Assembly: GCA_028280575.1 (NCBI GenBank) | Contig: JANQLN010000068.1 | Location: 19,580-83,579, forward strand | Direction: 5' to 3' | DNA: 64,000 nucleotides | Origin: Clostridia bacterium | Lineage (GTDB): Bacteria > Bacillota > Clostridia > Acetivibrionales > STF1-152 | Shown: piece by piece, positions 14,203 to 38,462 of the stretch | How positions within the stretch are numbered: the stretch's first letter is position 1 | Layout: every line of letters starts with the position of its first letter | Notes under the pieces: model-generated | Told to the model about the DNA's origin: nothing | The model's input: only the letters and a program-made list of their open reading frames with translations | The model's database searches: none | Translations under genes and position numbers: made by a program

Positions 14203-14940
14203 TTGATTAACAAGTCACAGCCTTTACCGTTATATTATCAGGTAAAAGAGGATATCCTGGATAAAATCAGTCAGGAGATATTTCAGGTGGGAGACATAAT
14301 ACCTTCTGAAAATGAGCTGCAAAGCATGTATAGAGTAAGCCGCATCACTATAAGGCGCGCTATACAGGAGCTGGTTCAGGAGGGCTATCTTTCTGCCCAG
14401 CAGGGTAAGGGTACTTTTGTAAGCCAACCTAAAGCTACCCAGGAGTTAAATGTGATAACAAGCTGGGCTGAAACCATGATGAATCTTGGTATGCACCCTG
14501 AAACAAAGAACATTCAGTTCAGCGAGGAGTCTTCGTCCGTTACTGTAGCCAAAATGTTAAATGTGGACCCCGGTGAAAGAGTATATAAGATTGAGAGATT
14601 AAGATATGCCGCGGGAGAGCCTATTTGTATAATGGTTAACTACCTGATACCTGAATTGGTTCCGGGTTTGATACAAAAAGGACTTGTGGGAGAATCCCTG
14701 TATGAAACTCTGGAAAAAAGGTATAACATTGTCATGGAGAGGGCTGTTGAAACTGTAGAAGCCTGTGCGGCCAATGTACGGGAGGCAGAGCTTTTAAACA
14801 TTAAGAAGGGTTCACCACTGCTGCGGGTAAAGAGGGTGACCTACGGCAGTGATGACAGGGTTATAGAAATAGTAATAGCGGTATCGAGGGCGGACAAGTA
14901 CTCATATACAATCAACCTGCTGGGAAGACCTAAGAAGTAG
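14203..14940 (+). CDS. GntR-family (HutC/UTRA) regulator
   Basis: PLYYQ, PSENEL...VSRITIRRA...QGKGTFV; UTRA-like C-terminus. Confidence 0.93.
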   Translation: MINKSQPLPLYYQVKEDILDKISQEIFQVGDIIPSENELQSMYRVSRITIRRAIQELVQEGYLSAQQGKGTFVSQPKATQELNVITSWAETMMNLGMHPETKNIQFSEESSSVTVAKMLNVDPGERVYKIERLRYAAGEPICIMVNYLIPELVPGLIQKGLVGESLYETLEKRYNIVMERAVETVEACAANVREAELLNIKKGSPLLRVKRVTYGSDDRVIEIVIAVSRADKYSYTINLLGRPKK

Positions 14941-19184: not shown

Positions 19185-19409
19185 AAAATAATTTTGCACT
19201 TGTTTATCAACACAGGCAATTTTCTGTATCTTATGATTGGCACACCATATTCAAAAAATATCACAGATTTATGATAATACAAACATATAATTCAAATATG
19301 CTTAAATGTTATTTTGTTGTACTTTTATAAAAAAATATTATTGTTTTTTTCATACATGATGATATATAATCACAACTGACCAATAAATAAAGAAGAAGGG
19401 GAGCATTGA

Positions 19410-20357
19410 ATGGAGAAAAACTATCTAATCAAGCCTAAAGGATTTGCTCTTTTGAAGGATTGGCTGGCCTCATACAGAAAACACAGGGTATTGTTTTTAA
19501 TGCTGATACCTGGGTTGTTGTATTTTATTGTTTTCAAGTATTTCCCGATATATGGTTTGCAGATTGCATTTAAAGATTTTAACCTGGTCGAAGGTATCTG
19601 GGGCAGTGACTGGGCAGGATTAAAATACTTCAATATGCTTTTTACTACAAAAAGCTTTTTTGACGTTTTTAAAAATACGATTATTATAAGCATATATCAA
19701 TTAGTATTTGGTTTCCCGGCACCTATCATACTGGCACTCATGTTATATGAGATAAGGAATTTGGCTTATAAAAAACTGGTACAAACTATCAGTTACCTTC
19801 CCCACTTTGTATCATGGGTCGTATTAGCCGGCGTTTTCACCCGATTTTTGTCGCCTTCTTCAGGCCCCGTCAATATTTTAATTAAAACATTTGGGGCTGA
19901 ACCGATCTTCTTTTTGGGCGATAACAGATATTTTAGAGCGACGTTGATTGTAACAGAGATTTGGAAAAGTATAGGATGGGGATCAATTGTTTATATTGCG
20001 GCTTTATCAGGAATTGACCCAGCATTATACGAATCAGCAAACATAGACGGTGCAAATAAAATTAAAAAAATTATTCATATTACTCTGCCATCATTGACGC
20101 CTGTCATTACAATTATGCTGATATTTGCTATAGGCAGGATAATTAATGATAACTTTAACCAGATATTTAATCTGTATAGTCCGATTGTATATCCAACCGG
20201 TGATGTTATCAGTACTTACGTATATCGAATGGGTTTGGCCAAAATGGAATTCAGCTTTACTACTGCAGTGGGTTTGTCCAAGAATGTTATATCATTTTCG
20301 CTGGTTATTATTGCTAATGCTGTTGCAAAAAAAGTCAACGATTACGGTATATGGTAA
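19410..20357 (+). CDS. Sugar ABC transporter permease (LplB/YteP-like)
   Basis: SYLPHFVSWV, EAA loop LYESANIDGA. Confidence 0.93.
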   Translation: MEKNYLIKPKGFALLKDWLASYRKHRVLFLMLIPGLLYFIVFKYFPIYGLQIAFKDFNLVEGIWGSDWAGLKYFNMLFTTKSFFDVFKNTIIISIYQLVFGFPAPIILALMLYEIRNLAYKKLVQTISYLPHFVSWVVLAGVFTRFLSPSSGPVNILIKTFGAEPIFFLGDNRYFRATLIVTEIWKSIGWGSIVYIAALSGIDPALYESANIDGANKIKKIIHITLPSLTPVITIMLIFAIGRIINDNFNQIFNLYSPIVYPTGDVISTYVYRMGLAKMEFSFTTAVGLSKNVISFSLVIIANAVAKKVNDYGIW

Positions 20358-23263: not shown

Positions 23264-25120
23264 TTGACAATGCTGGGTAAACAGAATATTGAAACATATA
23301 TACGGAAGAACTTACAATTGGGTGGCCGGGTTTTAGACGGACATAAGCAAAAAAATGTTATTTACGCAAAACTTGTGATCGGGGATAAAGTTGATATATC
23401 TGACTTTGATGATATTCTGAATAAATTGTATTATAGATATGATTGTGGTGATTTTGATGTTAACTTACTGGTAAGAATACTTTATTTGTATAGCAATACC
23501 GGGCAATTAACTGAGGAAACAAAAGATGCGATTAAGCAAGCCTTGCTTGATTTTGACTATTGGTTTAGTAAAAACAATAAAAATCCAGGCAAACATATTT
23601 TCTGGACGGAAAACCATGTAATGCAATTTTATACGGCTGAATACCTTCTTGCCCAATTCTATCCTGACGATACATTCAGAATGAGAGAGAAAAAGGGCAA
23701 AGACATGCTGGGCATGTTAAAGGATCGTGTCCTAGATTGGATTTGGATAAAGGCCAAAACCGGATTCTGCGAGTGGAACTCCAATGCATATACGGGAGGC
23801 AATATTTATGCGTTACTCAATATTTATGACTTTTCCGGGGATATGATTGTTCGTAATAAGGCAAAAGACTTATTGGACATCATTATGCTTGATATTGCAG
23901 TTAACTCATATAAGGGCAGCTTTGCTTCTACACATGGCCGTGCTTATGTTAACCATGTGATTTCCACAAAAAATGATAACACTTCATTAGCAACAAAAAT
24001 ATTATGGGACAATATATGCGGATTTAATGCAATCAGTTCCAACAGCGGTCTCGCTCTAATGACGAGCGGCTACGATACCCCGTCCATAATAAACAAAATT
24101 GCTTGTAACGAACAAGAAGTATTGCTCACTAAAGAACAGCAGAGCTTCAATGTGGAGGATGGCCCGGCTTTAGGTAAGGGCTTTGAGGATGAGGAAGACC
24201 TGACTTTATATTGGCATAACATGGGCTACACCCATCACGATATATTAGAAAAAAACCTTGAAATGGAAAAAAAATATCATCTAAACATTAATGAATGGCC
24301 ATATAGAGAATATTTGCACCTTAAGAATAACATGCACAGCAAATCGAAAGAAGGTGCCTGTTATGACCACAATTATTTAAGCAGAGTCAATTTTACAACC
24401 TGTAAAACGCCTGACTACATGATTAGCTGCGCACAAGATTTCAGAAAAGGCGGGTATGGATTTCAGCAGCATATATGGCAGGCAACAATGGATGGTGATA
24501 TTACGGTATTTACAAACCACCCTGGCCCAAATACCCGGCCTTGTTATTGGGCAGGCAGCTATTATTTGCCAAGAGCGGTACAATACAAAAACACCGTCAT
24601 AAGCATTCATGACATTAAAAGGAAATGCCATTTTGAATTCACCCATGCACATTTCCCGAGAAGCAAATTTGATGAAGTCTGTGAAATTGATGGATGGATA
24701 TTTGGTAGAAAAGGAGATGGCTACATTGCATTGTGTTCGCAAAATCATTATGAGTGGAATAATGAGCATCCATATCTCAATTGTGATGTGGTATGCAAAG
24801 CCAGAGAGAACATTTGGATATGCCAGATGGGGAGAAAAGAGGATGATGTCAGTTATAAATACTTTGTTGCCGGCATTTTGAGAAGTCAATTGACCTTTTC
24901 AGCTCAATCTGTAAAATATGCGACTCCTAAAGGCGATGTGCTTGAATTCGGCTGGGACGGTGATTTGCTGGTAAACGGCCAAGTAGAGAAAATCCGGGAC
25001 TACAAGCGGTTTGACAATAAGTATTGCCAAAGTGAATATATGAGCGGAATATATAAGATTAGTGACGGAACTGACAGTATTGAATATGATTTTACGGATA
25101 TAAAAAAAATTGATACATAG
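23264..25120 (+). CDS. Hypothetical protein, possibly carbohydrate-active (heparinase II/III-like architecture)
   Basis: WTENH, GFCEWNSNAY, THGRAY, GFQQHIWQAT, FTNHP motifs; last gene of the sugar ABC operon. Confidence 0.55.
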   Translation: MTMLGKQNIETYIRKNLQLGGRVLDGHKQKNVIYAKLVIGDKVDISDFDDILNKLYYRYDCGDFDVNLLVRILYLYSNTGQLTEETKDAIKQALLDFDYWFSKNNKNPGKHIFWTENHVMQFYTAEYLLAQFYPDDTFRMREKKGKDMLGMLKDRVLDWIWIKAKTGFCEWNSNAYTGGNIYALLNIYDFSGDMIVRNKAKDLLDIIMLDIAVNSYKGSFASTHGRAYVNHVISTKNDNTSLATKILWDNICGFNAISSNSGLALMTSGYDTPSIINKIACNEQEVLLTKEQQSFNVEDGPALGKGFEDEEDLTLYWHNMGYTHHDILEKNLEMEKKYHLNINEWPYREYLHLKNNMHSKSKEGACYDHNYLSRVNFTTCKTPDYMISCAQDFRKGGYGFQQHIWQATMDGDITVFTNHPGPNTRPCYWAGSYYLPRAVQYKNTVISIHDIKRKCHFEFTHAHFPRSKFDEVCEIDGWIFGRKGDGYIALCSQNHYEWNNEHPYLNCDVVCKARENIWICQMGRKEDDVSYKYFVAGILRSQLTFSAQSVKYATPKGDVLEFGWDGDLLVNGQVEKIRDYKRFDNKYCQSEYMSGIYKISDGTDSIEYDFTDIKKIDT

Positions 25121-25147
25121 CATTCTGTATGAAACGTCTTAATTCTT

Positions 25148-25318
25148 TATTATGACATGGTAAGAAAATTATATAGGTGAAGCATTGGATATTCGCGTTG
25201 AAAAAGATAAAAATGGGAACAGGTGCAAGTATCAAGCAGCTTGAGAAGGGTCTTGGAATAGGAAGAAATATAATTCAAAAAACTTAATCAGCAAGTCAAA
25301 CAAAACGTCCCCTTGACT
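25148..25318 (+). mobile_element. RAYT-like transposase relic, copy 1 (3' end plus REP-like palindrome)
   Basis: Encodes LKKIKMGTGASIKQLEKGLGIGRNIIQKT*, followed by agtcaaacaaaacgtccccttgact (25294-25318); aligns with 35270-35477. Confidence 0.7.
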
Positions 25319-25330
25319 CCCAACTATTTC

Positions 25331-25359
25331 TTGTTGTCAATAGGGTAATAGTATATAAT
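25331..25359 (+). promoter_or_regulatory. Putative sigma-A promoter of the TA operon
   Basis: TTGTTG-17 bp-TATAAT. Confidence 0.45.
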
Positions 25360-25392
25360 TATATGTGTGAATGAATAGCAATAGTATAAAGG

Positions 25393-25803
25393 TTGATTAA
25401 TATGGAAGAATACTTTAATACAATAAAAGAATACTTAATAAAAAAACTGGATCCACACCTGATAATCATATTTGGATCTGCAATACGTGGCGAAATGAAC
25501 GATGAAAGTGATATAGATGTTGGTTTTCTCAATGAACAAAAAAATGACCCATATCGAATTTTCTTGCTGTCACAAGAACTTGCAAATATAGTTGGAAAAG
25601 ATATTGACCTTGTGGATATGTCGAAATCCTCTACAGTTATGCAGGTGCAAATAATTAGTAGTGGTAAAATAATATATAATGCCAACTACGTTAAAAGTGC
25701 GGCTTTTATGATGAAATCCTTCAAGCAGTATGCAATGCTCAATGAAGAGAGAAAATGTATTTTGGATAAAATAAATGAAAGAGGTAGTATTTATGCAAAA
25801 TGA
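25393..25803 (+). CDS. mntA: MNT antitoxin (minimal nucleotidyltransferase, MntA-type)
   Basis: FGS...G...SDID motif, DLVD; overlaps the downstream HEPN gene. Confidence 0.85.
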   Translation: MINMEEYFNTIKEYLIKKLDPHLIIIFGSAIRGEMNDESDIDVGFLNEQKNDPYRIFLLSQELANIVGKDIDLVDMSKSSTVMQVQIISSGKIIYNANYVKSAAFMMKSFKQYAMLNEERKCILDKINERGSIYAK

Positions 25804-26197
25804 CATAATAATAAATAAATGTGCTACTATAGAAAGATGTATAAAAAGAATAGAACAGGAATATGATAACAACTATGAAAATCTGAAAAACTTTACCAAA
25901 CAAGACTCCATAATTCTTAATATACAAAGGGCTTGTGAAGCCTGTATTGACCTGGCCATGCATATAGTCTCAATAAAAGGATTGGGAATCCCACAAAAAA
26001 CAAGAGATGCATTTGATATTCTCTGCAAAAACGACATTATTAGTGAATTATTAAGTAAAAAAATGAAGTCAATGGTAGGATTCAGAAATATAGCAATCCA
26101 TGATTATCAGGAATTAAGTTTATCTATTATTAATGAAATTATTAAAAAGCATCTTAATGATTTTACTGAATTTACAAGCGTAATATTATCCATATAG
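25793..26197 (+). CDS. hepT: HEPN (DUF86) RNase toxin, HepT-type
   Basis: RNIAIHDY (R-x4-H followed by Tyr); ATG at 25793 after gaggt. Confidence 0.87.
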   Translation: MQNDIIINKCATIERCIKRIEQEYDNNYENLKNFTKQDSIILNIQRACEACIDLAMHIVSIKGLGIPQKTRDAFDILCKNDIISELLSKKMKSMVGFRNIAIHDYQELSLSIINEIIKKHLNDFTEFTSVILSI

Positions 26198-26213
26198 CAA
26201 GTCAAGGAGTCAG

Positions 26214-26468
26214 AGTCAAAGGGACGTTTCGTTTGACTTCAACTATATGTAATGTATTTATTAGGGTGAGATTAACATACCAGGAAAAGTCAGAATGATA
26301 AGTAAAACAGAAATTATCACACTACGGGGAATATTGGAGAATCAAGAAATAGTTGATGCGGATTTTTGTTTACTTTTCAATTATTGAAGAATTCATAAAA
26401 TATGAGACTGAATAAAGAACCGTGTAAATGGTAATAATCTCCACATAAAACAAAACGTCCCCTTGACT
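26214..26468 (+). mobile_element. RAYT-like relic, copy 2, bounded by inverted REP-like palindromes
   Basis: agtcaaagggacgtttcgtttgact (26214-26238) ... caaaacgtccccttgact (26451-26468); interior aligns with 35027-35224. Confidence 0.7.
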
Positions 26469-26470
26469 TC

Positions 26471-28258
26471 CTAAACGGTATACCATTCCATTTGTGCTGT
26501 ATACATTTTATAATATATACTATCAGGGTTATTTATTAATTCTTGATGTGAGCCGTCCTCATGTATGTATCCATCATTAATTACTATAATTCGGTCTGAA
26601 TATTTGGCAAATCCAAGGCGATGGGATACAAAAAATACCAATCTGTCTTTAGCAAGTGAAAAGACTAATTTATAAATGTCAATTTCGGCTAACGGGTCAA
26701 TATAAGAGGTGGGCTCGTCTAAAATCCAAACATTTGCTTTTTCATTAGCTATCAGCCTGGCAATTGCTAAACGCTGCCACTGTCCTTTTGATAATTCTAT
26801 TCCCTCTTCAAGATTACCTAACTTAGTATAAATTCCATCAGGTTTTGTTTTTATGAATTCATACAGGCCAACCATCTTTAGTATGTTATTAATTTTATCT
26901 GGATTTAGTTCCTTTCCTCCACAACCAATTTCTATATTTTCTTTAACACTCATTTGATAGTGCTTAAAATCTTGAATAACTGCAGTAGCACATAAATCAT
27001 TACAAGAATATTTTCCTTCATAATTTTCAAGCAATGATAGAATAATGGAAACAAATGTAGTTTTTCCGCTGCCGTTATAACCAACTACTGCTATCTTTTC
27101 ACCTTTTTTAAATGATATGTTTATTCCCTTTAACACATAATTAACAGTCTGAGAATATTTATATTTTAAATTTCTGATTTCTATTAAATTAGTGCTGGCC
27201 TGACAATCTATTGTGTTGTGTTCTTTATAATCCATAACTTCATAATAAGCTTCCAAGACTCTTATATACCAATTACTATTTAGCATAAAAACTGTAAAGC
27301 TTTTTACTGTCGAAAATAGATTGGTGAGTAGGGCTACAACCATACTAAAATACCCTATATTATATTCGCCGTCTGCCACGCCTTGTCCGACAGACAATAT
27401 GGTTATGATAAATGTAGCTAGAAAAAGGGCAGAAGAAACAAGCTCTGATGAAAATGACAAAACATTTAACTTTAAATAATTTTTACGTTCGCATTTATTA
27501 TAAAATTTATATTTGCTTAAAAAAAAGGCAAAGCTTCCTTCCACCTGTATATTTTGGTGGTTTATCCTATTGCCTAGAACTCCTTTGAAGTAATTATTTC
27601 TGCGTGTCTCGGGAGAAACGTGTTTTCTCCAATAATCAAGCTGCTTGTCTGTTACAATACCTGCCAAAATTATGTTAATTATCAAAGCTATTAATATTAC
27701 GACCAGAAACATAGTATTTATTTTTGATAAAAGAACTGAATAAACTACAAACATCAATATAATTCTGGCAATTTGTGTTATACCGAATACGGCATTGCTA
27801 TATTGTCCGCTAGCTTTGCGTGCAAAATCAATTTTTTCGTGAAATTGATTGTTTTCATAGTACTCGTATGATATATTTGAAAGCTTATTAACTATGCCTT
27901 TTTCCACTTCAAAAGATACCTTATCAACGTATTTTGCTGTTATTCTATAATATAAATTACTCAATAATCTCATAATCAGTAATGCAAGAAGAAACAGTAT
28001 TATTGATGCAAATATAGTAAAAAAATTATCATCAATTCCTTGCTTTGAATAAACCGATATGCTATTTGTGGTATATTCCAAAAATTTCAAATCAATAAAG
28101 CTAACGCTCATTGTTATACAGGCAAGGACAATAATCATAATAGTATCAAATTTGAATTTTGAATATAGCTCTTTAATAATTTTCCACTGGATAATAAAGA
28201 ACTTTTTTGCAGTTATTTTTTCATTCATGTCCTTACTTTTTACTTTTTTACTCTTCAT
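26471..28258 (-). CDS. ABC exporter (TMD + ATPase), RiPP cluster
   Basis: Multiple TM helices, GYNGSGKT, LSKGQWQR, LDEPT, SHRL. Confidence 0.92.
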   Translation of the reverse strand: MKSKKVKSKDMNEKITAKKFFIIQWKIIKELYSKFKFDTIMIIVLACITMSVSFIDLKFLEYTTNSISVYSKQGIDDNFFTIFASIILFLLALLIMRLLSNLYYRITAKYVDKVSFEVEKGIVNKLSNISYEYYENNQFHEKIDFARKASGQYSNAVFGITQIARIILMFVVYSVLLSKINTMFLVVILIALIINIILAGIVTDKQLDYWRKHVSPETRRNNYFKGVLGNRINHQNIQVEGSFAFFLSKYKFYNKCERKNYLKLNVLSFSSELVSSALFLATFIITILSVGQGVADGEYNIGYFSMVVALLTNLFSTVKSFTVFMLNSNWYIRVLEAYYEVMDYKEHNTIDCQASTNLIEIRNLKYKYSQTVNYVLKGINISFKKGEKIAVVGYNGSGKTTFVSIILSLLENYEGKYSCNDLCATAVIQDFKHYQMSVKENIEIGCGGKELNPDKINNILKMVGLYEFIKTKPDGIYTKLGNLEEGIELSKGQWQRLAIARLIANEKANVWILDEPTSYIDPLAEIDIYKLVFSLAKDRLVFFVSHRLGFAKYSDRIIVINDGYIHEDGSHQELINNPDSIYYKMYTAQMEWYTV

Positions 28259-30072
28259 ACCAATTCAAGTTTCTCCTCATACACCTTTTTTTGTTCATAA
28301 AAAAGCTTTGCATAATAGCCATTTTTTAAAAGCAGCTGTTCATGGGTTCCCTCTTCTGTAATTTTACCATTTTCAATCATGATAATCCTATCAGCAAGCC
28401 TTGCAAAGCCTATTCTATGTGATATTAGAATAGCTGTTTTACCTTTGATGTTTTCTCTCAGGCCATTTATCATATCTATTTCTTTTAGCGGGTCAATAGA
28501 CGCTGTCGGCTCGTCTAATATTAATATTTCAGGGTTTCCCAAATAAGCTGAGGCGATAATCAGTTTTTGCCACTCACCCCCGGATAGTTCAACTCCGTCA
28601 TCATTGTATTCTTTTCCGACAAAAGTATTATCCGAATCCTTATATTTAGATATAAAAGACTCTATACCTGCTTTTCTATAAGCAATCGTTAATTCGGGCT
28701 TGTCATTCATATATTTAATATTCCCAAGGCCGACAATTTCTTTTATTGATAATGAAAAACGCGAAAACTCTTGCGGAGCCATACCAAAGTATTGAAATAC
28801 TCTTGATTTTTCTTGTCCAATATCAAAACCATTAATAGCAACCTTTCCTCTTTGCGGATTAAGGCTTCCGTTAAGTAATTTTGATAACGTTGTTTTTCCG
28901 CTGCCGTTATATCCCATTATACTGACAATCTCCCCTTTTTTTAAATGCATTTTTAAATCATTAACAGCCGGATTATCACTATTTGGATAACAGTATGTTA
29001 CGTTAATTGATTCTAAGGATTCAAAAGAATCAAATACCAAATTATTTGACTCTTTACACTGCTTATTTAATTTTTTCGTCTCAATGTTACCAATAGGAGT
29101 TATAAATTCTACATAATCATTTATATATTTAAGGTCTTTATAAAAGCCATTCATTACAGTACTAACGACTTTATTTATCTGTGTGTATGATGCTTCTATT
29201 AAGCCAAACAGCATAACAAATGTACCGATATCGTACTTTTTATAATAAATTCCTGTAACTAATATGAGTATCGCAGCTACTCTCAAAAAGAATTTTACTA
29301 TCAGGGATAAATTATCCAGACTAATTCTTTTAAGCGATAAAGCTAAACGTTCCTGCCGAAGATTAGAATAGATATTATCCCACTTCTTGAGGATACTACT
29401 TTTATAATCATATATGCGGAGCTCTTTTGCATACTCCTTTCCAGTTAACAATTCAACAAAATAATCCCTGAACCGTTGTTCCTTTATTTGTTTTTTATCA
29501 AGTTCATATTCCTTTTTTGAAGTGTATTTCAATGTTATAAATGATATAACGGAACATAATATCGAATATGCTATCAACATGGGTTCATATATCACAAAAA
29601 TCATGATTGTACCAAAAATGGTGCCCATATTAGAAAAAAACAACATAATAAGATTATTCAAATAAGAACTAATCTTTTGTGTATTATTACTTATAAATGA
29701 ATACCTTTCCATAAACTTCTTATCAAAAAATCTCTCTTGCGGTGTTTCTAAACTTCTCCTCATAAATATACTTTGGAAAAGGAAATCAATATTAAGTCGA
29801 AAAAAATTATTACCAAATGCTTTGAGAAAACTATTTGATATATCTATAAAATACACAATCATATATGCCATGGCAATTCCAAAAAAGGCACCGGTTGTCT
29901 GGCCCACTTTAATACTTGAAGATAGCTCATTTATGAGATTTTTATTTAATATATTCAATAAAATACTTACGGCCGTTGAAAAAGAAAGTACCAGTATATA
30001 AACGAAAATGTAAAAAAAACAATATTTAAATGATTTTTTAATTATCCAAAGGATATTATTTATTTGCTTCAT
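28255..30072 (-). CDS. ABC exporter (TMD + ATPase), RiPP cluster
   Basis: GYNGSGKT, LSGGEWQK, LDEPT; 4-bp overlap with the next ABC gene; no C39 peptidase domain. Confidence 0.92.
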   Translation of the reverse strand: MKQINNILWIIKKSFKYCFFYIFVYILVLSFSTAVSILLNILNKNLINELSSSIKVGQTTGAFFGIAMAYMIVYFIDISNSFLKAFGNNFFRLNIDFLFQSIFMRRSLETPQERFFDKKFMERYSFISNNTQKISSYLNNLIMLFFSNMGTIFGTIMIFVIYEPMLIAYSILCSVISFITLKYTSKKEYELDKKQIKEQRFRDYFVELLTGKEYAKELRIYDYKSSILKKWDNIYSNLRQERLALSLKRISLDNLSLIVKFFLRVAAILILVTGIYYKKYDIGTFVMLFGLIEASYTQINKVVSTVMNGFYKDLKYINDYVEFITPIGNIETKKLNKQCKESNNLVFDSFESLESINVTYCYPNSDNPAVNDLKMHLKKGEIVSIMGYNGSGKTTLSKLLNGSLNPQRGKVAINGFDIGQEKSRVFQYFGMAPQEFSRFSLSIKEIVGLGNIKYMNDKPELTIAYRKAGIESFISKYKDSDNTFVGKEYNDDGVELSGGEWQKLIIASAYLGNPEILILDEPTASIDPLKEIDMINGLRENIKGKTAILISHRIGFARLADRIIMIENGKITEEGTHEQLLLKNGYYAKLFYEQKKVYEEKLELV

Positions 30073-30114
30073 AATGCTTCCTCATTAATTAATTAAGATA
30101 ATTGTGCTAATATT

Positions 30115-31164
30115 TTAGCTTACAATACTCTTTTTATTTGTTGCATAACGATACAAAAGATGATTAGTTTGCTTTTTCCTGAATAAACATCCTCCATCAG
30201 TTCCATAGAAATTGCCTAAATGAAAAGCTTTACCTCTGCACCCACCTCTGCAAATACTCTTACAAATACATTGATTGCAATTTGCCAGCTTTTCTTTACT
30301 GGCACTTTTTATGTTATTCAGAATGGTTTTATATTTTTCATTTTTAAAAATGTGTAGTAAATCATGGTCATTGATATTACCTAATATATATTCGTCACTA
30401 TATAATAATTGACACGGCAATACACAACCTTTGTAATTGATACATAAATTAATTTCACTTTTATCATCTGTTAACGGACAAATATAACCATATTGAATAG
30501 GATTTACATCTTCACGGTTATTCTTCATCATTAATTCACCAATTAGCAAATGTATTTTATATAAATCATCTACATTTTGAATAAACATGTCTTGTTTGCC
30601 TGACGCATTTCCTTGTCTTTCTAGGAGCCCAAAAATGGGAAGATAATCATAATATGAAATTAAATTATAAAACGCTTTTATGTCTTCTTTATTATAAGCT
30701 GAGACTACCATTTTCACAAATATTTTTTTAATACCACTCTTTTTTAACTGATCAATATTATGAATTGTTTTATTGAAGCTTCCATGTCCTCTAACTATAT
30801 CATTAGTTTCTGCTGTAGCACCATCTAAACTTATTTGCAAAGTTAAAAGTGAATATTTTTTGATATATTCTATGAACTTGGTATTAATAAGCGTACCATT
30901 AGTAACAATAGTAGCATTTAAACCTCTCTTAGTAATATAATCTAGTATTTTCAAAAAATTTTTATGTAATAGTGGTTCGCCACCTGACAGTGTTATGGAT
31001 TTAGCATTACTGATAAACAAATTGTCAACCAATGAACAAATTGCTTTATAAGATATTTCTTCATTGGGATTTTTTGGCGACTGGTTATAGCAATGCTTAC
31101 AACTTAAATTACATTTTGATGTTATTTCAATATAACAATTTCCAATTTTTCTCATAATAGCCAC
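30115..31164 (-). CDS. Radical SAM/SPASM peptide maturase
   Basis: CNLSCKHC (CxxxCxxC), SGGEPL, SLDG; SPASM region C...GCVLPC...CxxCx5CxxxCx16C; no N-terminal RRE. Confidence 0.92.
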   Translation of the reverse strand: MAIMRKIGNCYIEITSKCNLSCKHCYNQSPKNPNEEISYKAICSLVDNLFISNAKSITLSGGEPLLHKNFLKILDYITKRGLNATIVTNGTLINTKFIEYIKKYSLLTLQISLDGATAETNDIVRGHGSFNKTIHNIDQLKKSGIKKIFVKMVVSAYNKEDIKAFYNLISYYDYLPIFGLLERQGNASGKQDMFIQNVDDLYKIHLLIGELMMKNNREDVNPIQYGYICPLTDDKSEINLCINYKGCVLPCQLLYSDEYILGNINDHDLLHIFKNEKYKTILNNIKSASKEKLANCNQCICKSICRGGCRGKAFHLGNFYGTDGGCLFRKKQTNHLLYRYATNKKSIVS

Positions 31165-31172
31165 CCGTTAAC

Positions 31173-31733
31173 CTATATTATTTTTTGTATTAGTATACTA
31201 GCGTTTAACAATTGATATAAAAAATGATATGTTTCATCTAGCAATTCCTGTTTATCAACCTGAAACTCGTTTTGTAATGAAAGAATAATTTCAATTAAAG
31301 TTGTTTTACCATCAAACTTTTCTAATATATGTTTTTCCAAATCTTCAAGGACATAAACTATATTTTCTTGTGAATTAAAAATAACATATCCATCATCAAT
31401 ATTCTCTAAATGCAAAGATTTATTTGTAATATAGATTTTGTGCTTGTCATCTTTCATTTGTTCATTCTTATCCATCATTTGTTCAATAGTTTCTATTGCT
31501 ATATCCGTTTCATTTTCTTCATTGCCAAAATCATACTTAGTGCAATACCCTCCTGAAAAACTGAAACAAGTATCAGAATTGATATTCTTGTAGATACCTT
31601 TTTCATCCAGATTATTACTATTAGACCTTTTGCTCATACCCAAACCACATCCTTTATTCATACCCCCTCCAACTCCTTTGCTCATGCCCACTCCACTTTC
31701 TTTTATCAGGCTCCGTTCAGATATTTTTTTCAT
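31173..31733 (-). CDS. PqqD-family RiPP recognition element with an N-terminal precursor-like extension
   Basis: C-terminal ~88 aa fits PqqD (DDGYVIFN...VYVL......ILEKFDGKTTL.EI...L...F.V......D...FL.QL....IL); ATG at 31733 after gaaggtg. Confidence 0.8.
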   Translation of the reverse strand: MKKISERSLIKESGVGMSKGVGGGMNKGCGLGMSKRSNSNNLDEKGIYKNINSDTCFSFSGGYCTKYDFGNEENETDIAIETIEQMMDKNEQMKDDKHKIYITNKSLHLENIDDGYVIFNSQENIVYVLEDLEKHILEKFDGKTTLIEIILSLQNEFQVDKQELLDETYHFLYQLLNASILIQKII

Positions 31734-31801
31734 ATAACTACACCTTCTTTCAGTCAAATATATTTTTTTTATAAAACATCTGTAATAATTATAGAATACA
31801 C

Positions 31802-32100
31802 TTTATTGAATAATGAAAGAAAATAAACGATTATAGAACAATATCTTATTAAATCAATTTTCTGTATTCAAATAAATTATTTCGGACTACAATGGTCATC
31901 ACACCACCCACCGGAATAATTTGAACAAGCTCCAGCTACAATTTGATTATTGATTGATTCCTGATCCAGCTTTATGAGTTTAAGTGCTCTCCATTTCATG
32001 CATACCACCTCCTTTACATTCTCTTATAGTATGCTATATAAAATACGTAAATAGTTAATGATAAGTCTAGTTTTCGCTTTTCCCTTCATTATTCAATAAA
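31802..32100. repeat. Perfect 16-bp inverted repeat enclosing the precursor gene
   Basis: tttattgaataatgaa (31802-31817) and ttcattattcaataaa (32085-32100). Confidence 0.85.
31877..31999 (-). CDS. Putative RiPP precursor peptide, 40 aa: MKWRALKLIKLDQESINNQIVAGACSNYSGGWCDDHCSPK
   Basis: Hand-translated; strong RBS aaaggaggtgg upstream of the ATG at 31999; co-oriented in the cluster; Cys/Ser/aromatic C-terminal core. Confidence 0.88.
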   Translation of the reverse strand: MKWRALKLIKLDQESINNQIVAGACSNYSGGWCDDHCSPK

Positions 32101-32240
32101 TAGCAGTCAATAATTACTTTAATAGGAATTATATCAATTAACATACAGCATACAAAAATGATTTAAACAAGTTCTTCTATGATTTATTTATTAAATGTAT
32201 TTTACTCTAATTCCTAAGCTTAGAGATCATTAATTCCATT

Positions 32241-33791
32241 TCAACCTTTACAGATTACACCTTCCCCTTGCAAATATTTCCTGTTGTATTCTATATTTTT
32301 TATATTGTCTTGTGACAATAACGGCTTTATTACGCTGAAGCGGTCTTCACAGAAAAGTCTATCAAGGAAAGGGATCGGCCAAGTATTATATTCAGATTCT
32401 GCTAATCCAAACCGATCTAAAAAACCCGGTTCGCCTATTTCTAATTCCTGATAGGGTTCCAATATTGACTTATCGTCGAAAACCAAAGCTGTATAATACA
32501 AGGTGTAATATATGTATTTTTCAATATCATATAGTTTTGCTATCTTAATTACTAGGTCAGTATTTATATTCTCTTTCTTTACTAAACTATATACATCACA
32601 AAATCTACGTAAGCTTATACTTTTATTTCCGGATAATAAGTACAAAGAGCTATGTTCCTTATAATTGTGCAGACAATATTGTATAAAAGCCTTTTCAATG
32701 GAAAGTGTATAGAAATCAACCGAACCATATGTAGTCTTTACGGTATCTGATAAAAAATCTTTTATTTCTATAGATTGGCTTTCATGTTTCCCCCATAAGA
32801 TAGCAAAGTTAATGTTTATGCATATAAAGGGTATTCGTTCATCTGTATTAGGTTTTATATAAGGTAAAACTTGATTAGTAGAGTTTAAATAAAATAACAT
32901 CTGCTTTCGTGTAAATTTAGAAATGGTCATATTCTTATTCAGATATCCCTGTACGAAACCCTGTCTTTCTAATATAGATATAATATCTTGGAGATTTTGC
33001 TTGTCAATCAATATATTTATTTCTGATGAACCACTATAAGATTCGTCTTTATATACAGCTTTAGCTAAAGGTAGCCCTTTTATAATTGCATAGGGAAAAT
33101 CTATAGCAGAAATTATTGGGGGTAGCATATTATATAGTACCTGATAAGCTGATTTATTCAATACTCTCTTTACTCTTGATACAGCATCTAAGTTAAATTC
33201 TTTAAAACCATTCACTTTTGATAATAATTCTGTAATATTGTGACGTCGAAATATTCTCAAAGTATCTGCCAATATGTTTTTTGATAAGTGAGCAGTGTCA
33301 ATTAACCCCTTCTTAAATATTGAGCGTAATATGTGTAAAACAATATGGTAAAAGTTAGTTTCAACATTTAAGAATAAATTTTTGTACTTTTGATATTCAA
33401 CGTCCTTTATAATTTTTTCAATATTATAATTATAAATCTCTGCTACTTTGTGTACCTTAAAGGCCAAATCGATAAATATATTAATATTATTTATATCTAT
33501 ATATCCTTTTGTTAAATCGATTCCTCCCCTTTTTACAGATATAACTTTGCCTATGACGTTGTTTCTACTAACAAATTCCAAACGAAATGAATTATCACCT
33601 TTGCATAATAAACGGTTTTTTTGAACAGAGATAACTCTATGAACAAGATAACCTTCATCCTTATAAGAAAATACGACGATGTCTCCCGGATGATAATCAC
33701 AAAGTGGCCTTAAGCGAACTAAATCTCCATCTTTCAGGCGTGGATTCATACTAGCCCCTTTTACAATTATTGTAGTACCTTCAATTGTCAA
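32241..33791 (-). CDS. S24/S26 peptidase fused to an NTP_transf_5-type nucleotidyltransferase domain
   Basis: N-terminal GASMNPRLKDGD, LVHRV, KGDN; C-terminal YAIIKG..LA...Y, EINILI, later RRFCD. Confidence 0.8.
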   Translation of the reverse strand: MTIEGTTIIVKGASMNPRLKDGDLVRLRPLCDYHPGDIVVFSYKDEGYLVHRVISVQKNRLLCKGDNSFRLEFVSRNNVIGKVISVKRGGIDLTKGYIDINNINIFIDLAFKVHKVAEIYNYNIEKIIKDVEYQKYKNLFLNVETNFYHIVLHILRSIFKKGLIDTAHLSKNILADTLRIFRRHNITELLSKVNGFKEFNLDAVSRVKRVLNKSAYQVLYNMLPPIISAIDFPYAIIKGLPLAKAVYKDESYSGSSEINILIDKQNLQDIISILERQGFVQGYLNKNMTISKFTRKQMLFYLNSTNQVLPYIKPNTDERIPFICININFAILWGKHESQSIEIKDFLSDTVKTTYGSVDFYTLSIEKAFIQYCLHNYKEHSSLYLLSGNKSISLRRFCDVYSLVKKENINTDLVIKIAKLYDIEKYIYYTLYYTALVFDDKSILEPYQELEIGEPGFLDRFGLAESEYNTWPIPFLDRLFCEDRFSVIKPLLSQDNIKNIEYNRKYLQGEGVICKG

Positions 33792-34599
33792 AGTCCATCC
33801 TCCTTATCACTTGATTTACAAACTTCATTTCAGTGTAACTTATTTTCTTACAGAAGTATTGAGATAGTTGAGTCAGGAATTTTAGATAATTTTCAGATAT
33901 CTTTACTCTTTGAATAGAGTTTTCAAGCAATAGTTTTATTTTTTCTCCACAGTTCAATTTTTCAACTGCATTAGTATTTTCTGTTCTTTCAATTAGAAAT
34001 ATTTTTCCAAGCGGTACATTGCAATTTACTACATTTCCAGGTTTATATATATACCGCTCTGCAATGATATGGTTAAAAAAATGGGTATTAATGTTAATAT
34101 TATTATTATATAATGCTGTTATTCCACCACTCCTCAGATGGATATTACATGGAAAGGGAATTACTTCCTTTGTTTCTCTATCAATTATAGAACAATCATC
34201 TGTAATATAACCAAAATCTTGCTGTATTAAATAAGTAGTCAGTGTTGTCTTTCCACTGCTTGTAGGTCCCACTAGCAAAAAAGCCTCGCCGTTATATTCA
34301 ACTGCTGCTGCATGAATAGCAAAAAAACTTCGATTTATTTCAGTATTTTCATAAATAAAGTTTATTATTGTCTGTAAAGGATTTCTAACTTGTGTTCTTT
34401 TGTTATTCATATCAATCCATATACCGCTATCATTTTTTATTACCTTAATAATAGCGGACTTATTTGTCTGTGCTTTAGCAATAAAAGGCTCGTAATACAT
34501 TTCTATTTGTTTGATTAATTCCTTCATATTGGTATGAATCTCAATATCCGTATCATGGCAGGGTCTATTAATATATAATACATTTGTCATGCAGTCCAA
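33781..34599 (-). CDS. HPr kinase-related (RiPP-type) Ser/Thr kinase
   Basis: IHAAAV...GPTSSGKTTL P-loop and ITDD motif; 11-bp overlap with the peptidase gene. Confidence 0.8.
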   Translation of the reverse strand: MDCMTNVLYINRPCHDTDIEIHTNMKELIKQIEMYYEPFIAKAQTNKSAIIKVIKNDSGIWIDMNNKRTQVRNPLQTIINFIYENTEINRSFFAIHAAAVEYNGEAFLLVGPTSSGKTTLTTYLIQQDFGYITDDCSIIDRETKEVIPFPCNIHLRSGGITALYNNNININTHFFNHIIAERYIYKPGNVVNCNVPLGKIFLIERTENTNAVEKLNCGEKIKLLLENSIQRVKISENYLKFLTQLSQYFCKKISYTEMKFVNQVIRRMDFDN

Positions 34600-35026
34600 A
34601 TAAACATCAACTCCTTTTTTGTTTTTGGCTATCTACTAATTTTATTATTTATGTTTATTATTTATGCAAGTTTCACACAAACATGAACCTTCAAAGTGGA
34701 ATATTTAGTGCACCCTATTTCGTCCTGTCTGTGTTTTTTTTAACCTTTTTGCCGCATCTTTAAATGTAATTTTCCTTATTAAACAGCTACCTCTAAGCTT
34801 ATTATTTTGACCTTTGACATGCCTTTTTGAGCAAAAACAACAATAAGTAAATCCATACAATTTTCAATTGACATATTTATACTATACTATATAATTCAAT
34901 AAAAACCAAACATAAATTGGATTACTTCTTCTTTATATGTGATTACAAATATATGGTATACTATAATTTTATTCACGTCAACCTATTTTTGCTAATTTTG
35001 TGTAATTTATTTTTATTTGTTATTAA

Positions 35027-35480
35027 AGTCAAAGGGATGTTTTGTTTGCTTTAACTATATGTAATGATATATTTATTAGACAAGGGAGATGATTACTATG
35101 CCAAAAAAAGTCAGAATGATAAGTAAAACAGGGAATTTAACACACCACTAGGAATAGTTATGGAAATTACATGTCGGGAATCAAGGGATAGTTGATACGG
35201 ATTTTTGTTTTGGTTACTTTTCAAGTATCAAAGAATACAAAATATAATGAAGAAAAAAGAATGTCTGGATTATTATGACAGGGTGAGGTAAAAAGATGAT
35301 GGATTAAAGAAAAATATAGGTGAAAGGGTTGACATAAAGGTAATGGACACATCGGATATTCGCGTAGAAAAAGATAAAAATGGAAACAGGTGCAAGTATC
35401 AGGCACTTGAATGGTTCTTGGAAAAAATATAATTCAAAAAGCTTAATTAGCAAGTCAAACGAAACGTCCCCTTGACTTGC
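35027..35480 (+). mobile_element. RAYT-like relic, copy 3 (most complete; internally deleted)
   Basis: Inverted REP-like ends (35027-35050, 35450-35480); RBS plus MPKKVRMISKTG at 35098; fragments IVDTDF, ECLDY, TGASIR, NIIQKA*; HUH/Y1 core absent. Confidence 0.72.
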
Positions 35481-35550
35481 TTTTAAATAAATTCGAGAAT
35501 TATAAGACATTTTAAAATTTTCTCCGTATTTATATATGTAAACATAAATT

Positions 35551-36015
35551 GTGAAACAGGAGTTAATTTATATGAATAATGACCTTTTTAAATCTCAGAA
35601 AAATAAAATGATTGCCGGTGTTTGCGGAGGAATTGCCGAATTTACCCGGATAGATGCTACAATAATTCGTTTGGCGGTAGCAGCTATAGCATTTGTATTT
35701 CAACCGATTATTATCCTTTATATAATTGCTGCCATTGTTATACCCAGATATGACGGCAATGCACAATCAAATATGAATGGAACGTGTTCTTCTGAGGGTA
35801 ATCAGGATTCTTACTACAATGCCGGGGATGAAAACGGGCAAAATGATGATTATGATCCGCAAAATACAAGAGTTGTTTTGGGAGGAGCATTGATTTTGAT
35901 TGGTGCAGGTTTTCTTTCAAATTATATGTTTCCACAGTTTTATGAAAAGTTTTTCTGGCCATTTTTATTCATAGCGGCAGGTGCCGCAGTAATATATACT
36001 TCATATAAGAAATAA
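35551..36015 (+). CDS. PspC-domain membrane protein
   Basis: KMIAGVCGGIAE...DATIIRL...YIIAAIVIP plus a C-terminal TM pair. Confidence 0.88.
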   Translation: MKQELIYMNNDLFKSQKNKMIAGVCGGIAEFTRIDATIIRLAVAAIAFVFQPIIILYIIAAIVIPRYDGNAQSNMNGTCSSEGNQDSYYNAGDENGQNDDYDPQNTRVVLGGALILIGAGFLSNYMFPQFYEKFFWPFLFIAAGAAVIYTSYKK

Positions 36016-36360
36016 AAGCATGTAATCCTGCTTATACATGTACCAATCTTTTATTGAAAAAATAGTTAGCTTCAAGTATCATATTAGCTGTTGATTTTTA
36101 AACATTGATAATAAAATTTTCGCTATAGTAATAGTTAACCGGCTTTTATATGCATGTCCGTTTAAAGAAAGATTATGTATTAATAGGTTTAGAGATTTCT
36201 AAAGTGCACATTACCTGTGTAAAAAAATTTTTTTAGAATAAAAAAAACAAATCAATTGGAAATTATTCCCGGAAGCTGCAGGGAGTTTACTTTAATTATA
36301 GTAACAATTTTTTTCTTTTTTGAATAAGATGGTATATAAGAGTTTGGGGAGGTATGTCAA

Positions 36361-36513
36361 TTGGCAGAGAATAGAGGGGTTTTAGATTGGTTTTTTGGAG
36401 ACTGTACAATCTTGTGGTTTATAATTCTTTTCCTGCTATTGTTCTACGGCTGTAATTTTTATGGTACCGGATACAGGGGGGACGCTGTAGATATCGGTCC
36501 GGTGGAGGAGTAG
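36361..36513 (+). CDS. Small 50-aa membrane protein MAENRGVLDWFFGDCTILWFIILFLLLFYGCNFYGTGYRGDAVDIGPVEE
   Basis: Hand-translated; RBS ggggagg before a TTG start; single hydrophobic helix; below the ORF-track size cutoff. Confidence 0.7.
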   Translation: MAENRGVLDWFFGDCTILWFIILFLLLFYGCNFYGTGYRGDAVDIGPVEE

Positions 36514-36710
36514 AATAATTAAATCCATTTATAGTCGGGATTAAGCAGCGGGCTTTTAGGCATTTATTCGTGCCTTGAAAGTCCGTTGATTTATATGAAA
36601 CGTCATTAATTCTTGTAATATGGTTTTTGAAATGTGTTTTCCAAAGCCATATTCTATAGAGTATTACGCTTGCATTTAAGCTGTACATAAAAACGCCGGG
36701 AGGGAATGTA

Positions 36711-38462
36711 ATGTCCGACAATGAACATGTTAAAACAGTGAATGGGAAAGTGCTGGATAATAAAAATGGAATAAATAATATTGAAATTTATCTTTACCGT
36801 GTTGTACAGAAAAGAGAGCTTGAGGATGGTCCGACTGTTTATCTTGAAACTTTTTATGGAAGTACCCGGACATCAAAAGACGGAGGATTTTATTTTATTG
36901 TTCCGGAAGGGGATTATTCGTTAGCGGTTAATATAGATTCACTTCCTGATGGGAAAACCGTATTAAAAAAAGATTACTTTCTGGAAAAATCCGTACACGA
37001 TCTGACCATAAACCTGGTAGGCAAAGAGCTGGAAAAGACCGGCGGCAGCCATATGCCGGAACGGCCGCAGATAAAAAAGGATGCCATTGATATAATCAGG
37101 AGCGACTACAGAAATGGAGTCATTAACAGGGAACAAATGGTAAGGAATATCCTCTACAGTATATTTGACAAATCAAAACTGGCAGAAAAATATACAAAAA
37201 GAAGAAGCATACCTATAAAATGTGCAACTACCGCCTTAGAGGAGATCAGGGAATATTCTGCAAGCAGGTATGCAGATCCTGCCCTGGCGTCAGAAGCAAG
37301 AAGGTATATAAGCAATATGATTCCTTCACTTGAAAAAAGCTATATAAGCAAAAGCGGCAATTTCAAAATATTTTATACAACTGAAGGAAGGCATGCGGTC
37401 TCCCTGAAGGACAGCAATAGAAACGGCGTACCCGATTATATCGAGGACGTAGCTTATGCCATGGAAAATGTAAGGACCGTTACCTGTGGACAGCGCGGCT
37501 TCAAGTATCCGCTCCTGGGCGGAAAAAATAGCTACTATAAAGTCTATCTTTATGACCTTGACGGCATATACGGATATACTGCATCTTCTTATAAAAGAGG
37601 CTATGGCAGCAGGGTAACATCATCTTCCTTTCTGGCGCTTGATAATAACTATTCTTCAAAAAAAGGATTTGAAATATCAAGAAATGCTGCTATGAAAGTT
37701 ACGGCAGCACATGAATATTTCCATGCCGTTCAATATGCGTATAATATGGATGCTGACAAATGGTGGAAGGAAGCTTCGGCAACATGGAATGAAGACGAAT
37801 TGTATTCATCGGTCAATGATTATTTCAGGTATATTGACGATATTTTTGAACAGCCTAATAAATCTTTGGATGAATATACTTACAGCGGTGTAGTGTTTGC
37901 CAAATACATTACCGAGTATAATAAAGGGTATGAAAGCATGAAACGGATTTGGGAAATTCAGAATGAAAAGACCGACAACAGCATTAATGCTATTGACCGG
38001 TTTTCAAAAGAAGGCAAGAATAAAAGCATAGGCGATATATTCAACAGGTTTTCAGCATATAACTTCAATCCTTCACAGTACTACGAAGAGGGCAGACAGT
38101 GGGACAGCAAACTGGCTGTCCAAAATACCTACGAGCAGTACCCTGTATTTTCCAGAAACAACAAGCTTGACCATCTTGCTGCCGATTACCAGCTATTTAA
38201 GTTGAGCGGGGTTAACAGCAGCAATGTCAGAATAACAGTTGAAGGCATCAGCAGTATAAAGTGGGGATTTAAGCTCCAGAAGAAAAGGAAAAGCGACGGC
38301 AGGTGTGACACCACATATATAGAGCTGGGAGAAGCAGCCAACAGGGCGGAGATTATACTAAAGAAGGCAGGGCAAACCTACAGCGAAATATGCCTTATAC
38401 CGGCAAACCTGGATAAAAGCAAAGACGGAGCATCATATGATTATTCCCTAAACATTGAATGA
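36711..38462 (+). CDS. Putative zinc metalloprotease (HEXXH; MXAN_6640-like) with N-terminal beta-sandwich
   Basis: AAHEYFHAVQYAY followed by WWKEASATW; D.N.NGVPDY motif. Confidence 0.7.
   Translation: MSDNEHVKTVNGKVLDNKNGINNIEIYLYRVVQKRELEDGPTVYLETFYGSTRTSKDGGFYFIVPEGDYSLAVNIDSLPDGKTVLKKDYFLEKSVHDLTINLVGKELEKTGGSHMPERPQIKKDAIDIIRSDYRNGVINREQMVRNILYSIFDKSKLAEKYTKRRSIPIKCATTALEEIREYSASRYADPALASEARRYISNMIPSLEKSYISKSGNFKIFYTTEGRHAVSLKDSNRNGVPDYIEDVAYAMENVRTVTCGQRGFKYPLLGGKNSYYKVYLYDLDGIYGYTASSYKRGYGSRVTSSSFLALDNNYSSKKGFEISRNAAMKVTAAHEYFHAVQYAYNMDADKWWKEASATWNEDELYSSVNDYFRYIDDIFEQPNKSLDEYTYSGVVFAKYITEYNKGYESMKRIWEIQNEKTDNSINAIDRFSKEGKNKSIGDIFNRFSAYNFNPSQYYEEGRQWDSKLAVQNTYEQYPVFSRNNKLDHLAADYQLFKLSGVNSSNVRITVEGISSIKWGFKLQKKRKSDGRCDTTYIELGEAANRAEIILKKAGQTYSEICLIPANLDKSKDGASYDYSLNIE

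Follow-up and report, generated by a model that had tools for sequence, protein, structure and literature searches.

The window analysed here is a stretch of 64,000 nucleotides from a Clostridia bacterium (assembly GCA_028280575.1, contig JANQLN010000068.1, positions 19,580 to 83,579 of the forward strand). Seven co-oriented open reading frames (ORFs) on its minus strand fill positions 26471-34599. Together they are a real, intact operon for a peptide made on the ribosome and modified after its translation (RiPP). In order of transcription, the genes are:

33781..34599, minus strand: HprK-like P-loop kinase, 272 aa, recognised by its PF07475, TIGR04352, TIGR04355 and ScmC matches and by AlphaFold2 (AF2) and Foldseek
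32241..33791, minus strand: archaeal/SipW-type signal peptidase I fused to an NTP_transf_5 nucleotidyltransferase (NTase), 516 aa (PF00717, PF14907, TIGR02228)
31877..31999, minus strand: Cys-rich precursor peptide pepA, 40 aa, MKWRALKLIKLDQESINNQIVAGACSNYSGGWCDDHCSPK, with ATG at 31999 and AAGGAGG 8 nt upstream
31173..31733, minus strand: PqqD-type RiPP recognition element (RRE) protein, 186 aa, likely start ATG 31733 (PF05402, 1.6e-6, above cutoff)
30115..31164, minus strand: radical S-adenosylmethionine (rSAM)/SPASM peptide maturase (PF04055, 1e-26; PF13186, 5.8e-9)
28255..30072, minus strand: ABC exporter half-transporter 1, 605 aa (PF00005, 3.5e-26; MsbA model TIGR02203, 1.7e-50, below cutoff)
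26471..28258, minus strand: ABC exporter half-transporter 2, 595 aa (PF00005, 4e-19; TIGR02203, 4.3e-46, below cutoff)

A first-pass annotation, made from the sequence alone, had read this region as a RiPP cluster of seven co-oriented minus-strand genes, some of them overlapping. All seven lie where it had placed them, and hidden Markov model (HMM) searches of Pfam and NCBIfam agreed with the cluster reading and with every domain call. The overlaps measure 11 nt between the kinase and fusion genes and 4 nt between the two ABC genes, and the rSAM/SPASM gene starts 17 nt past the RRE gene. The seven frames stay open across 8.1 kb, each gene is preceded by a Shine-Dalgarno-like motif, and the ORF list leaves no unaccounted space inside the cluster. 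The sequence motifs that carry the catalytic residues of the peptidase, kinase, rSAM and ABC proteins are intact. A promoter scan gave 60 promoter-like sites, compared with 57.2 ± 7.5 in shuffled sequences, and 0 terminators. As the annotation had said, the locus lacks lasso machinery: neither a lasso cyclase nor a B2 transglutaminase-type peptidase was found among the seven genes or the Pfam-scanned flanking ORFs.

As a whole, the pathway most resembles the route to linear polyphosphorylated peptides (LPPs) joined to a sactipeptide- or ranthipeptide-type maturase. LPPs were described in 2026 in Bacilli, with an lpp cluster in Paenibacillus alginolyticus, and their gene set consists of an SpI-like peptidase, a discrete RRE, a kinase resembling HprK, an NTP transferase and an exporter resembling MsbA (Popov et al., Nat Commun 2026, PMC13381572). 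According to the main text of that paper, the kinase places up to four phosphates on core Ser3, and the SpI peptidase LppS, with the triad S29/H68/D93, removes the leader only together with the RRE. The precursor without phosphate is cut poorly, deletion of the NTase has no visible effect on phosphorylation or cleavage, and the leader motif is YxxPxVLxHQxIxFETxxS. The terms radical SAM, SPASM, thioether and Clostridia have 0 occurrences in this main text. In the searchable literature we found no paper combining an LPP-type set with an rSAM/SPASM enzyme and a Cys core, and the rSAM compendium paper contains no kinase or peptidase terms. The annotation had known of no characterised RiPP with this enzyme set. 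That claim gives way for five of the six enzyme types, which the LPP main text covers, and stands for the added rSAM/SPASM enzyme and the Cys core. Its suggestion that a signal-peptidase-type protease takes the place of the lasso peptidase matches the LPP experiments reported there.

The pepA ORF spans 31877-32008 as listed, with ATG 31999 as the likely start, and its product has no family match. We aligned pepA with 15 precursors from related loci. In this 16-precursor alignment C33 was invariant, and conservation reached at least 90% at W3, I20, A24 and S26 and also at L6, which sits in a Pro column. The search for related precursors took small ORFs that had a Shine-Dalgarno motif, [WYF]xxP in the leader and a Cys late in the sequence, and was followed by a looser scan. 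A conserved small peptide was found in 12 of the 22 loci of the peptidase-RRE type described below, as well as in locus L051; filter and looser scan yielded none in the remaining 10. In the precursor of L004, MKKLWKKPVCTTMAAQTLSNHIKAAAWSGEGICDFEDFR, the distance from the leader Trp to the conserved Ser is 24 residues, the same as in pepA. Variants with an A-C-S junction also occurred among the related precursors. The C-x3-SGG-[WY]-C motif of the window was absent from the first 11 related loci.

The precursor profile matched 240 proteins at E≤1e-3 in a search of 1.84 billion representatives, the 240 being representatives clustered at 50% identity. Among the best 150 of these 240 matches, 147 were at most 80 aa long. 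WxxP was present in 139 of these 147 short proteins and a C-terminal Arg in 113, and the last 20 residues held exactly one Cys in 98 and at least one in 141. The commonest junctions in the same best 150 were AAARS, VAARS and ASACS; AGACS, the junction of the window, appeared 3 times. The family is characterised by WxxP in the leader, small residues at the junction, a Cys and a conserved Ser, and its cores are very short (10-16 residues). Seven precursors checked against NCBIfam matched no model, and five precursor motif strings did not occur in the searchable literature. Three long proteins (P0012, P0085 and P0112, of 401, 1013 and 850 aa) matched the precursor profile in 5-10 separate stretches each and could be low-complexity false matches or multi-copy precursors. 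We also noted a 38-nt inverted repeat, 82% complementary (31786-31823 and 32079-32116), that flanks the pepA gene on both sides. It could form a long stem in the pepA transcript, or may have arisen by chance in AT-rich DNA.

Small residues at positions -3 and -1 are the usual signal-peptidase rule. The A-A-A junction of the relatives and the A-G-A junction of pepA fit it, and the cut could fall there or, by analogy with the LPP sequence (F-E-T, then A-Q-S), one residue earlier. By the same analogy, the conserved Ser right past the junction would be the obvious counterpart of LPP Ser3.

The kinase is the predicted enzyme for phosphorylation of this Ser. Its HMM matches were PF07475 (E 4.5e-4), TIGR04352 (1.5e-10), TIGR04355 (1.7e-10) and ScmC (3.3e-7), all below cutoff. 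Its AF2 model, built from a 17-row alignment, had a predicted local distance difference test (pLDDT) score of 90.6. In a Foldseek search of the PDB the best matches of this model were phosphoenolpyruvate (PEP) carboxykinases (E 7e-8), followed by the HprK/P structures 1kkl and 1kkm (7e-5). A likeness to PEP carboxykinases is expected for HprK-type kinases. The weak HMM matches and the PEP carboxykinase/HprK/P fold together give the window the HprK-like kinase of the LPP set, and its identity to the kinases of related peptidase-RRE-type loci was 35-38%.

The fusion protein consists of a soluble peptidase domain at residues ~1-90 and an NTP_transf_5 domain at ~190-516. Peptidase_S24 (PF00717) matched at 2.9e-7, above cutoff, NTP_transf_5 (PF14907) at 6e-23, and the best NCBIfam match was archaeal-type signal peptidase I (TIGR02228, 4.6e-13). 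It shares with the LPP leader peptidase the archaeal/SipW-type signal peptidase I domain and the Ser/His/Asp triad, here S14/H51/D66; these residues and N67 were invariant in an alignment of three fused proteins. The full-length fusion is rare. A search of 5.8 billion clustered proteins yielded, besides its own entry, only P0002 (42% identity) and P0003 (36%), and the metagenome contig L013 carries a further true fusion (500 aa, 40% identity). Only 13 residues stand ahead of the catalytic Ser in the window peptidase, compared with 26-36 in the peptidases of L001 and of a second cluster in the same genome. In the structural model in the LPP main text, an N-terminal helix ahead of the catalytic Ser contacts the RRE (PMC13381572).

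The NTase domain corresponds to the PF14907 transferase of LPPs by its family, and its activity is doubtful. We aligned 34 domains, that of the window and 33 relatives, one of which has a masked residue. The window metal motif reads E257-I-N259; of the two Asp of the D-x-D motif, one was found in 32 of the relatives and the other in all 33. These figures were read from the alignment; a regular expression alone missed 17 of 43 matches. The conserved Arg preceding the motif is also absent in the window. In the accessible text of Zyubko et al. 2019, the NTase PsmN was needed for hexose addition to phosphorylated pseudomycoidin, and its D134A/D136A mutant was inactive (PMC6993621). By analogy with this mutant, the window domain has probably lost catalysis, and it may be a mere scaffold fused to the peptidase.

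The rSAM protein is 346 aa long if started at ATG 31155, and contains the CX3CX2C motif and 10 further Cys in its C-terminal part. Its best NCBIfam match was the StsB sactipeptide maturase (1.8e-40, 139 bits against a cutoff of 625), and the PapB maturase model gave 85.9 bits against a cutoff of 340. The mycofactocin, DynA and WgkB maturase models scored at much the same level as the sacti- and ranthipeptide models, all below cutoff. Among PDB sequences the closest solved relative was SkfB (6efn, 2.4e-15). Identity to the rSAM proteins of related peptidase-RRE-type loci was 35-37%. For both half-transporters, the MsbA model TIGR02203 was the best or near-best NCBIfam match, and neither contained a C39 or other peptidase domain in the Pfam and NCBIfam searches. 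The two agree with the MsbA-like exporter of LPPs, which likewise lacks a peptidase domain, and here take the form of two half-transporters. They were 51% (half-transporter 1) and 55% (half-transporter 2) identical to the ABC proteins of locus L042.

In the RRE protein, whose ORF is listed as 31173-31757, PqqD occupies the C-terminal half and the RRE domain residues ~99-186. This is the discrete PqqD-type RRE of the LPP set, though it carries an N-terminal extension of ~98 aa. Residues 42-64 of the extension (LDEKGIYKNINSDTCFSFSGGYC) resemble the leader-core junction of pepA. The first-pass annotation had called the protein a precursor-RRE fusion, and at the level of similarity this was borne out: the gapless alignment of pepA 11-33 with RRE 42-64 scored 54, compared with 22.5 ± 4.2 (maximum 49) for shuffles, and 0 of 2000 shuffles reached 54. 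In a six-frame translation of the whole genome, the pattern C-x3-S-G-G-[WYF]-C was found only in pepA and in this extension. A duplication of pepA into the RRE gene was not significant at the DNA level (57, compared with 45.8 ± 7.5 in shuffles). Among proteins of 101-324 aa, the extended RRE had no homologue except itself.

The extension is not an assembly artefact, because contigs of three further runs (X2, X3 and X4, three samples from two studies) span the junction with no stop or frame change. Over the 1.5 kb compared, these contigs were letter-identical apart from one insertion, an extra base at 31723 in a poly-A tract (codons 2-4 of the RRE gene) in one X3 contig of depth 5.3. The extra base would shift the frame, and may be an error or slippage. 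In the AF2 model of the whole RRE protein, residues 1-71 had pLDDT <50 and the RRE part 86-92. The extension is accordingly predicted to be disordered, and the model gave no support for its docking in cis. A complex prediction of the RRE domain with pepA scored 0.48, the best of 3 controls scoring 0.00, with at least 95% contact agreement between runs and a partner pLDDT of at least 54. Of 80 solved complexes, 58 reach the mark for such predictions, as do 2 of 110 mismatched pairs; only 7 of the 80, but both passing mismatches, reach it at ≤0.60. The result weakly supports leader binding and possibly reflects memory, since RRE-leader complexes are solved.

Scans for related loci gave 63, of which 11 were from species genomes (all Clostridia-type or Bacillota metagenome-assembled genomes, MAGs) and 52 on metagenome contigs. 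The window proteins and the proteins of two relatives were then mapped on these loci by tblastn. The record names point to gut, rumen and fermenter metagenomes as the sources of the related loci, and to a coral metagenome for the window. A peptidase match was present in 50 of the 63 loci, an NTP_transf_5 match in 41, an ABC match in 32, a kinase match in 30, an rSAM match in 28 and a PqqD match in 22. Peptidase and kinase occurred together in 29 loci, 23 of which had an rSAM match as well. The six loci without it (L019, L028, L041, L051, L052 and L059) are on contigs of 1.7-7.3 kb; five stop just past the peptidase or PqqD match, and the remaining one, L041, has a contig of 3.3 kb. In L018, where the peptidase adjoins NTP_transf_5, a neighbouring 465-aa protein is also an rSAM enzyme that tblastn missed, so the rSAM counts are minima.

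The arrangement of the peptidase differs among these loci. In 22 of them the peptidase match is followed by the PqqD match within 250 nt, as a single ORF of 239-240 aa in L001-L004; Pfam confirmed S24 and PqqD in the ORF of L001. Direct PqqD-rSAM junctions also numbered 22. NTP_transf_5 comes next after the peptidase in nine loci: L013 holds the true fusion, L006, L018, L020, L027, L036 and L042 have separate abutting genes, and L029 and L063 were counted by the tblastn match only. The natural peptidase-RRE fusions fit the need of SpI cleavage for an RRE, as published in the LPP main text. A large, uncharacterised family centred on Clostridia includes the window locus as a divergent member.

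Two of the related loci contain further genes. L001 holds a separate set at 18301-19881, composed of a 55-aa Cys-rich peptide, an 89-aa PqqD-like ORF and a 342-aa rSAM, and an ORF of 86 aa at 14599-14859 that resembles an acyl carrier protein. L042 has four tandem precursor genes ahead of the rSAM gene (176-854); their leaders are of the FxxP type, and their junctions end in A-C. A 413-aa minus-strand ORF, which may be a transposase, breaks this cluster between the rSAM and kinase genes.

The locus was compared with the systems it resembles. The wider family shares with LPPs a [W/Y]xxP-type leader and a conserved Ser 2-3 residues past the junction. The LPP leader motif itself is not present: pepA has W-R-A-L and A-G-A and the relatives WxxP and A-A-A, which is a related design. 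Unlike LPPs, which are linear, the window has an rSAM/SPASM gene and an invariant core Cys. Moreover, the peptidase is fused to the NTase in the window and to the RRE in 22 relatives, and the hosts are Clostridia-type MAGs and the coral-metagenome genome, not Bacilli. With the sacti- and ranthipeptide systems (StsB, SkfB, CteB, PapB) the locus shares a CX3CX2C rSAM with SPASM, an RRE, a short Cys core and an ABC exporter. It falls below the curated maturase cutoffs by which membership is assigned, its RRE is discrete and not N-terminal to the rSAM, and it has in addition a kinase, an NTase and a leader peptidase of the signal-peptidase type. Because the LPP leader motif and linear product fail, and all curated rSAM-maturase cutoffs fail, we count the locus as a member of neither group.

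The lasso clusters of the paeninodin/pseudomycoidin type share the HprK-like kinase, the PsmN-type NTase, the discrete RRE and the ABC exporter, and the W-type leader motif occurs in relatives. They differ in having a lasso cyclase and a B2 cysteine peptidase, both absent here, and the presumed phospho-Ser lies near the core N-terminus here and is C-terminal there. The HPr-rel-A system and the SynChlorMet cassette (ScmC/D/E/F) are in-silico systems in which HprK-like and PqqD-like proteins co-occur, the latter also with rSAM/SPASM enzymes. The window proteins scored below all their cutoffs (TIGR04352 40.7/200, TIGR04353 15.8/35, TIGR04249 30/125, TIGR04248 23.7/100 and TIGR04250 109.9/400); the PqqD part of the L001 fusion passed TIGR04353 with 43 bits against 35.

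Taken together, the operon most plausibly makes a ribosomal, modified and exported peptide with an LPP-type toolkit and an rSAM/SPASM maturase, a reading to which we assign a probability of roughly 0.7. We infer its chemistry (crosslink type, phosphate and phosphorylation site), where the leader is cut, in which order the steps run and what the RRE extension does. The RRE domain would bind the leader of the 40-aa precursor (W3...I20). The rSAM/SPASM enzyme would cross-link a core Cys, most probably as a thioether, with C33 as the invariant position. The kinase would phosphorylate S26, one residue past the A22-G23-A24 junction and analogous to LPP core Ser3. The soluble Ser/His/Asp peptidase domain would cut off the leader at or beside A22-G23-A24, and the heterodimeric ABC pump, with no peptidase domain of its own, would export the product.

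Several observations weigh against this reading. The kinase scores lie under every curated Pfam and NCBIfam cutoff. The rSAM protein is far under the cutoff of each named maturase, and a thioether is therefore no more than the closest guess. In pepA, Leu (L6) stands where the [W/Y]xxP motif has its Pro, and the A-G-A junction differs from the LPP junction F-E-T and permits two cut positions. The D-x-D motif of the NTase is lost. The window RRE is just 12-19% identical to the RREs of the family (24% to that of the second cluster of the genome), and its search against PDB sequences brought up only the PqqD structure 3g2b (E 0.49), with no RRE of an LPP or lasso system among the matches. Finally, this particular cluster is rare, because the full-length fusion was absent from all 40 related genomes searched; within its own family, both genomes lacked any match.

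The alternatives differ in how much of the proposed pathway they replace. The rSAM/SPASM enzyme might make a change other than a thioether, that is, a C-C or C-O crosslink to a conserved aromatic residue or an epimerisation, with phosphorylation and cleavage still LPP-like. The similar scores of the mycofactocin, DynA and WgkB models would agree with this, and W, Y or F lies near the junction in many cores. However, Cys is the only invariant core column, at least one late Cys is present in the 141 short family members counted above, and the top NCBIfam and PDB relatives, StsB and SkfB, are sactisynthases. We consider a non-thioether product unlikely, and the most serious of the alternatives. 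A far more remote idea is an elimination in the manner of class III/IV lanthipeptides: the kinase would activate the Ser for it, Cys would add to the resulting dehydroalanine, and the rSAM enzyme would have a separate job. The spacing of 2-8 residues between Ser and Cys in most cores would allow such a ring, but the Pfam scan found no lyase or cyclase domain in the cluster, and according to the accessible text of both papers the phosphate stays on Ser in LPP and paeninodin-type pathways (PMC13381572, PMC6993621). This route is very improbable.

The peculiarities of the window copy could also be read in two other ways. One has the family define a new RiPP class, in which a single short core would bear both a polyphosphorylated Ser beside the cleavage site and an rSAM Cys crosslink, and the signal-peptidase-type protease would be recruited by the RRE. 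In this genome the pathway would have moved on to a self-tethered substrate: the RRE protein would have captured a precursor copy as a second substrate with no need of leader recognition, and the NTase would be a dead scaffold for the peptidase. We find this combined proposal distinctly unlikely. The other, which we hold to be quite improbable, is that the copy is a decaying, non-producing relic. The change of the NTase D-x-D to E-I-N and of the leader Pro to Leu would be in keeping with decay, as would the RRE extension with no counterpart elsewhere, the low GC content and dispersed-repeat flanks, and the extra poly-A base at the start of the RRE gene in one X3 contig. Against decay stand the seven open frames over 8.1 kb with their Shine-Dalgarno motifs, coupled overlaps and intact catalytic residues. 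The 1.5-kb stretch, one insertion apart, is identical in three further samples from two studies, and the NTase deletion described in the LPP main text was without effect on phosphorylation or cleavage (PMC13381572). An operon with an LPP-type toolkit and an rSAM/SPASM maturase is the reading we retain.

The surroundings of the cluster bear on its origin. The cluster has a GC content of 29.6%, compared with 36.0% for the whole window and 38.1% for the genome (4.35 Mb). The first-pass annotation had described AT-rich DNA bounded by repeat relics, which we could trace to a ~390-nt element with copies on both sides:

35091..35477, no strand assigned: complete copy of the dispersed ~390-nt repeat, upstream of the cluster
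26270..26468, no strand assigned: partial repeat copy, directly downstream of the gene for half-transporter 2
25183-25318, no strand assigned: further repeat piece, beyond an MNT/HepT gene pair

The repeat is non-coding, ends in a 26-nt hairpin-forming sequence and corresponds to families D1, D3, D4, D6 and D7 of the repeat search. The genome holds 26 matches to it, and on contigs C60, C51 and C11 several lie at distances of 3-7 kb from one another. Rfam gave no match in 24500-36800, the repeat included. It may mark the boundaries of cassettes in variable regions. The low GC content, the flanking repeats and the absence of the fusion from 40 related genomes suggest horizontal acquisition, and the locus was probably acquired in this way.

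Between two of the repeat pieces (25393-26197), overlapping genes encode a toxin-antitoxin-like pair, in which an MNT-type nucleotidyltransferase (Polbeta, 3e-20) is combined with a HepT-like RNase (3.3e-30). A PspC-domain membrane protein is encoded at 35551-36015. The flanking proteins at 23264-25120 (618 aa) and 36711-38462 (583 aa) matched no Pfam family at E≤0.001.

The second cluster of the genome, which is of the same kind, lies on the minus strand of another contig, C30 (L012:2102-13457). It encodes a PqqD protein, three rSAM/SPASM proteins, one B12-binding rSAM, an HprK-like kinase, an ABC protein, an S24 peptidase and an NTP_transf_5 protein of 543 aa with an intact D-x-D. Its precursor has 42 aa, with a YxxPxL leader and a core end of GGWC-x3-C.

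These results join a peptide pathway described in 2026 to the older radical-SAM peptide chemistry: in a large number of clusters, its toolkit of kinase, peptidase, RRE and NTase is coupled to chemistry of the radical-SAM kind. The natural peptidase-RRE and peptidase-NTase fusions support an RRE-peptidase contact that, in the main text of the LPP paper, is only modelled. Should the RRE extension prove to be a genuine substrate, it would exemplify the fusion of a precursor with its own recognition element. The short cores of 10-16 residues are easy to work with, and could show whether phosphorylation gates crosslinking or cleavage.

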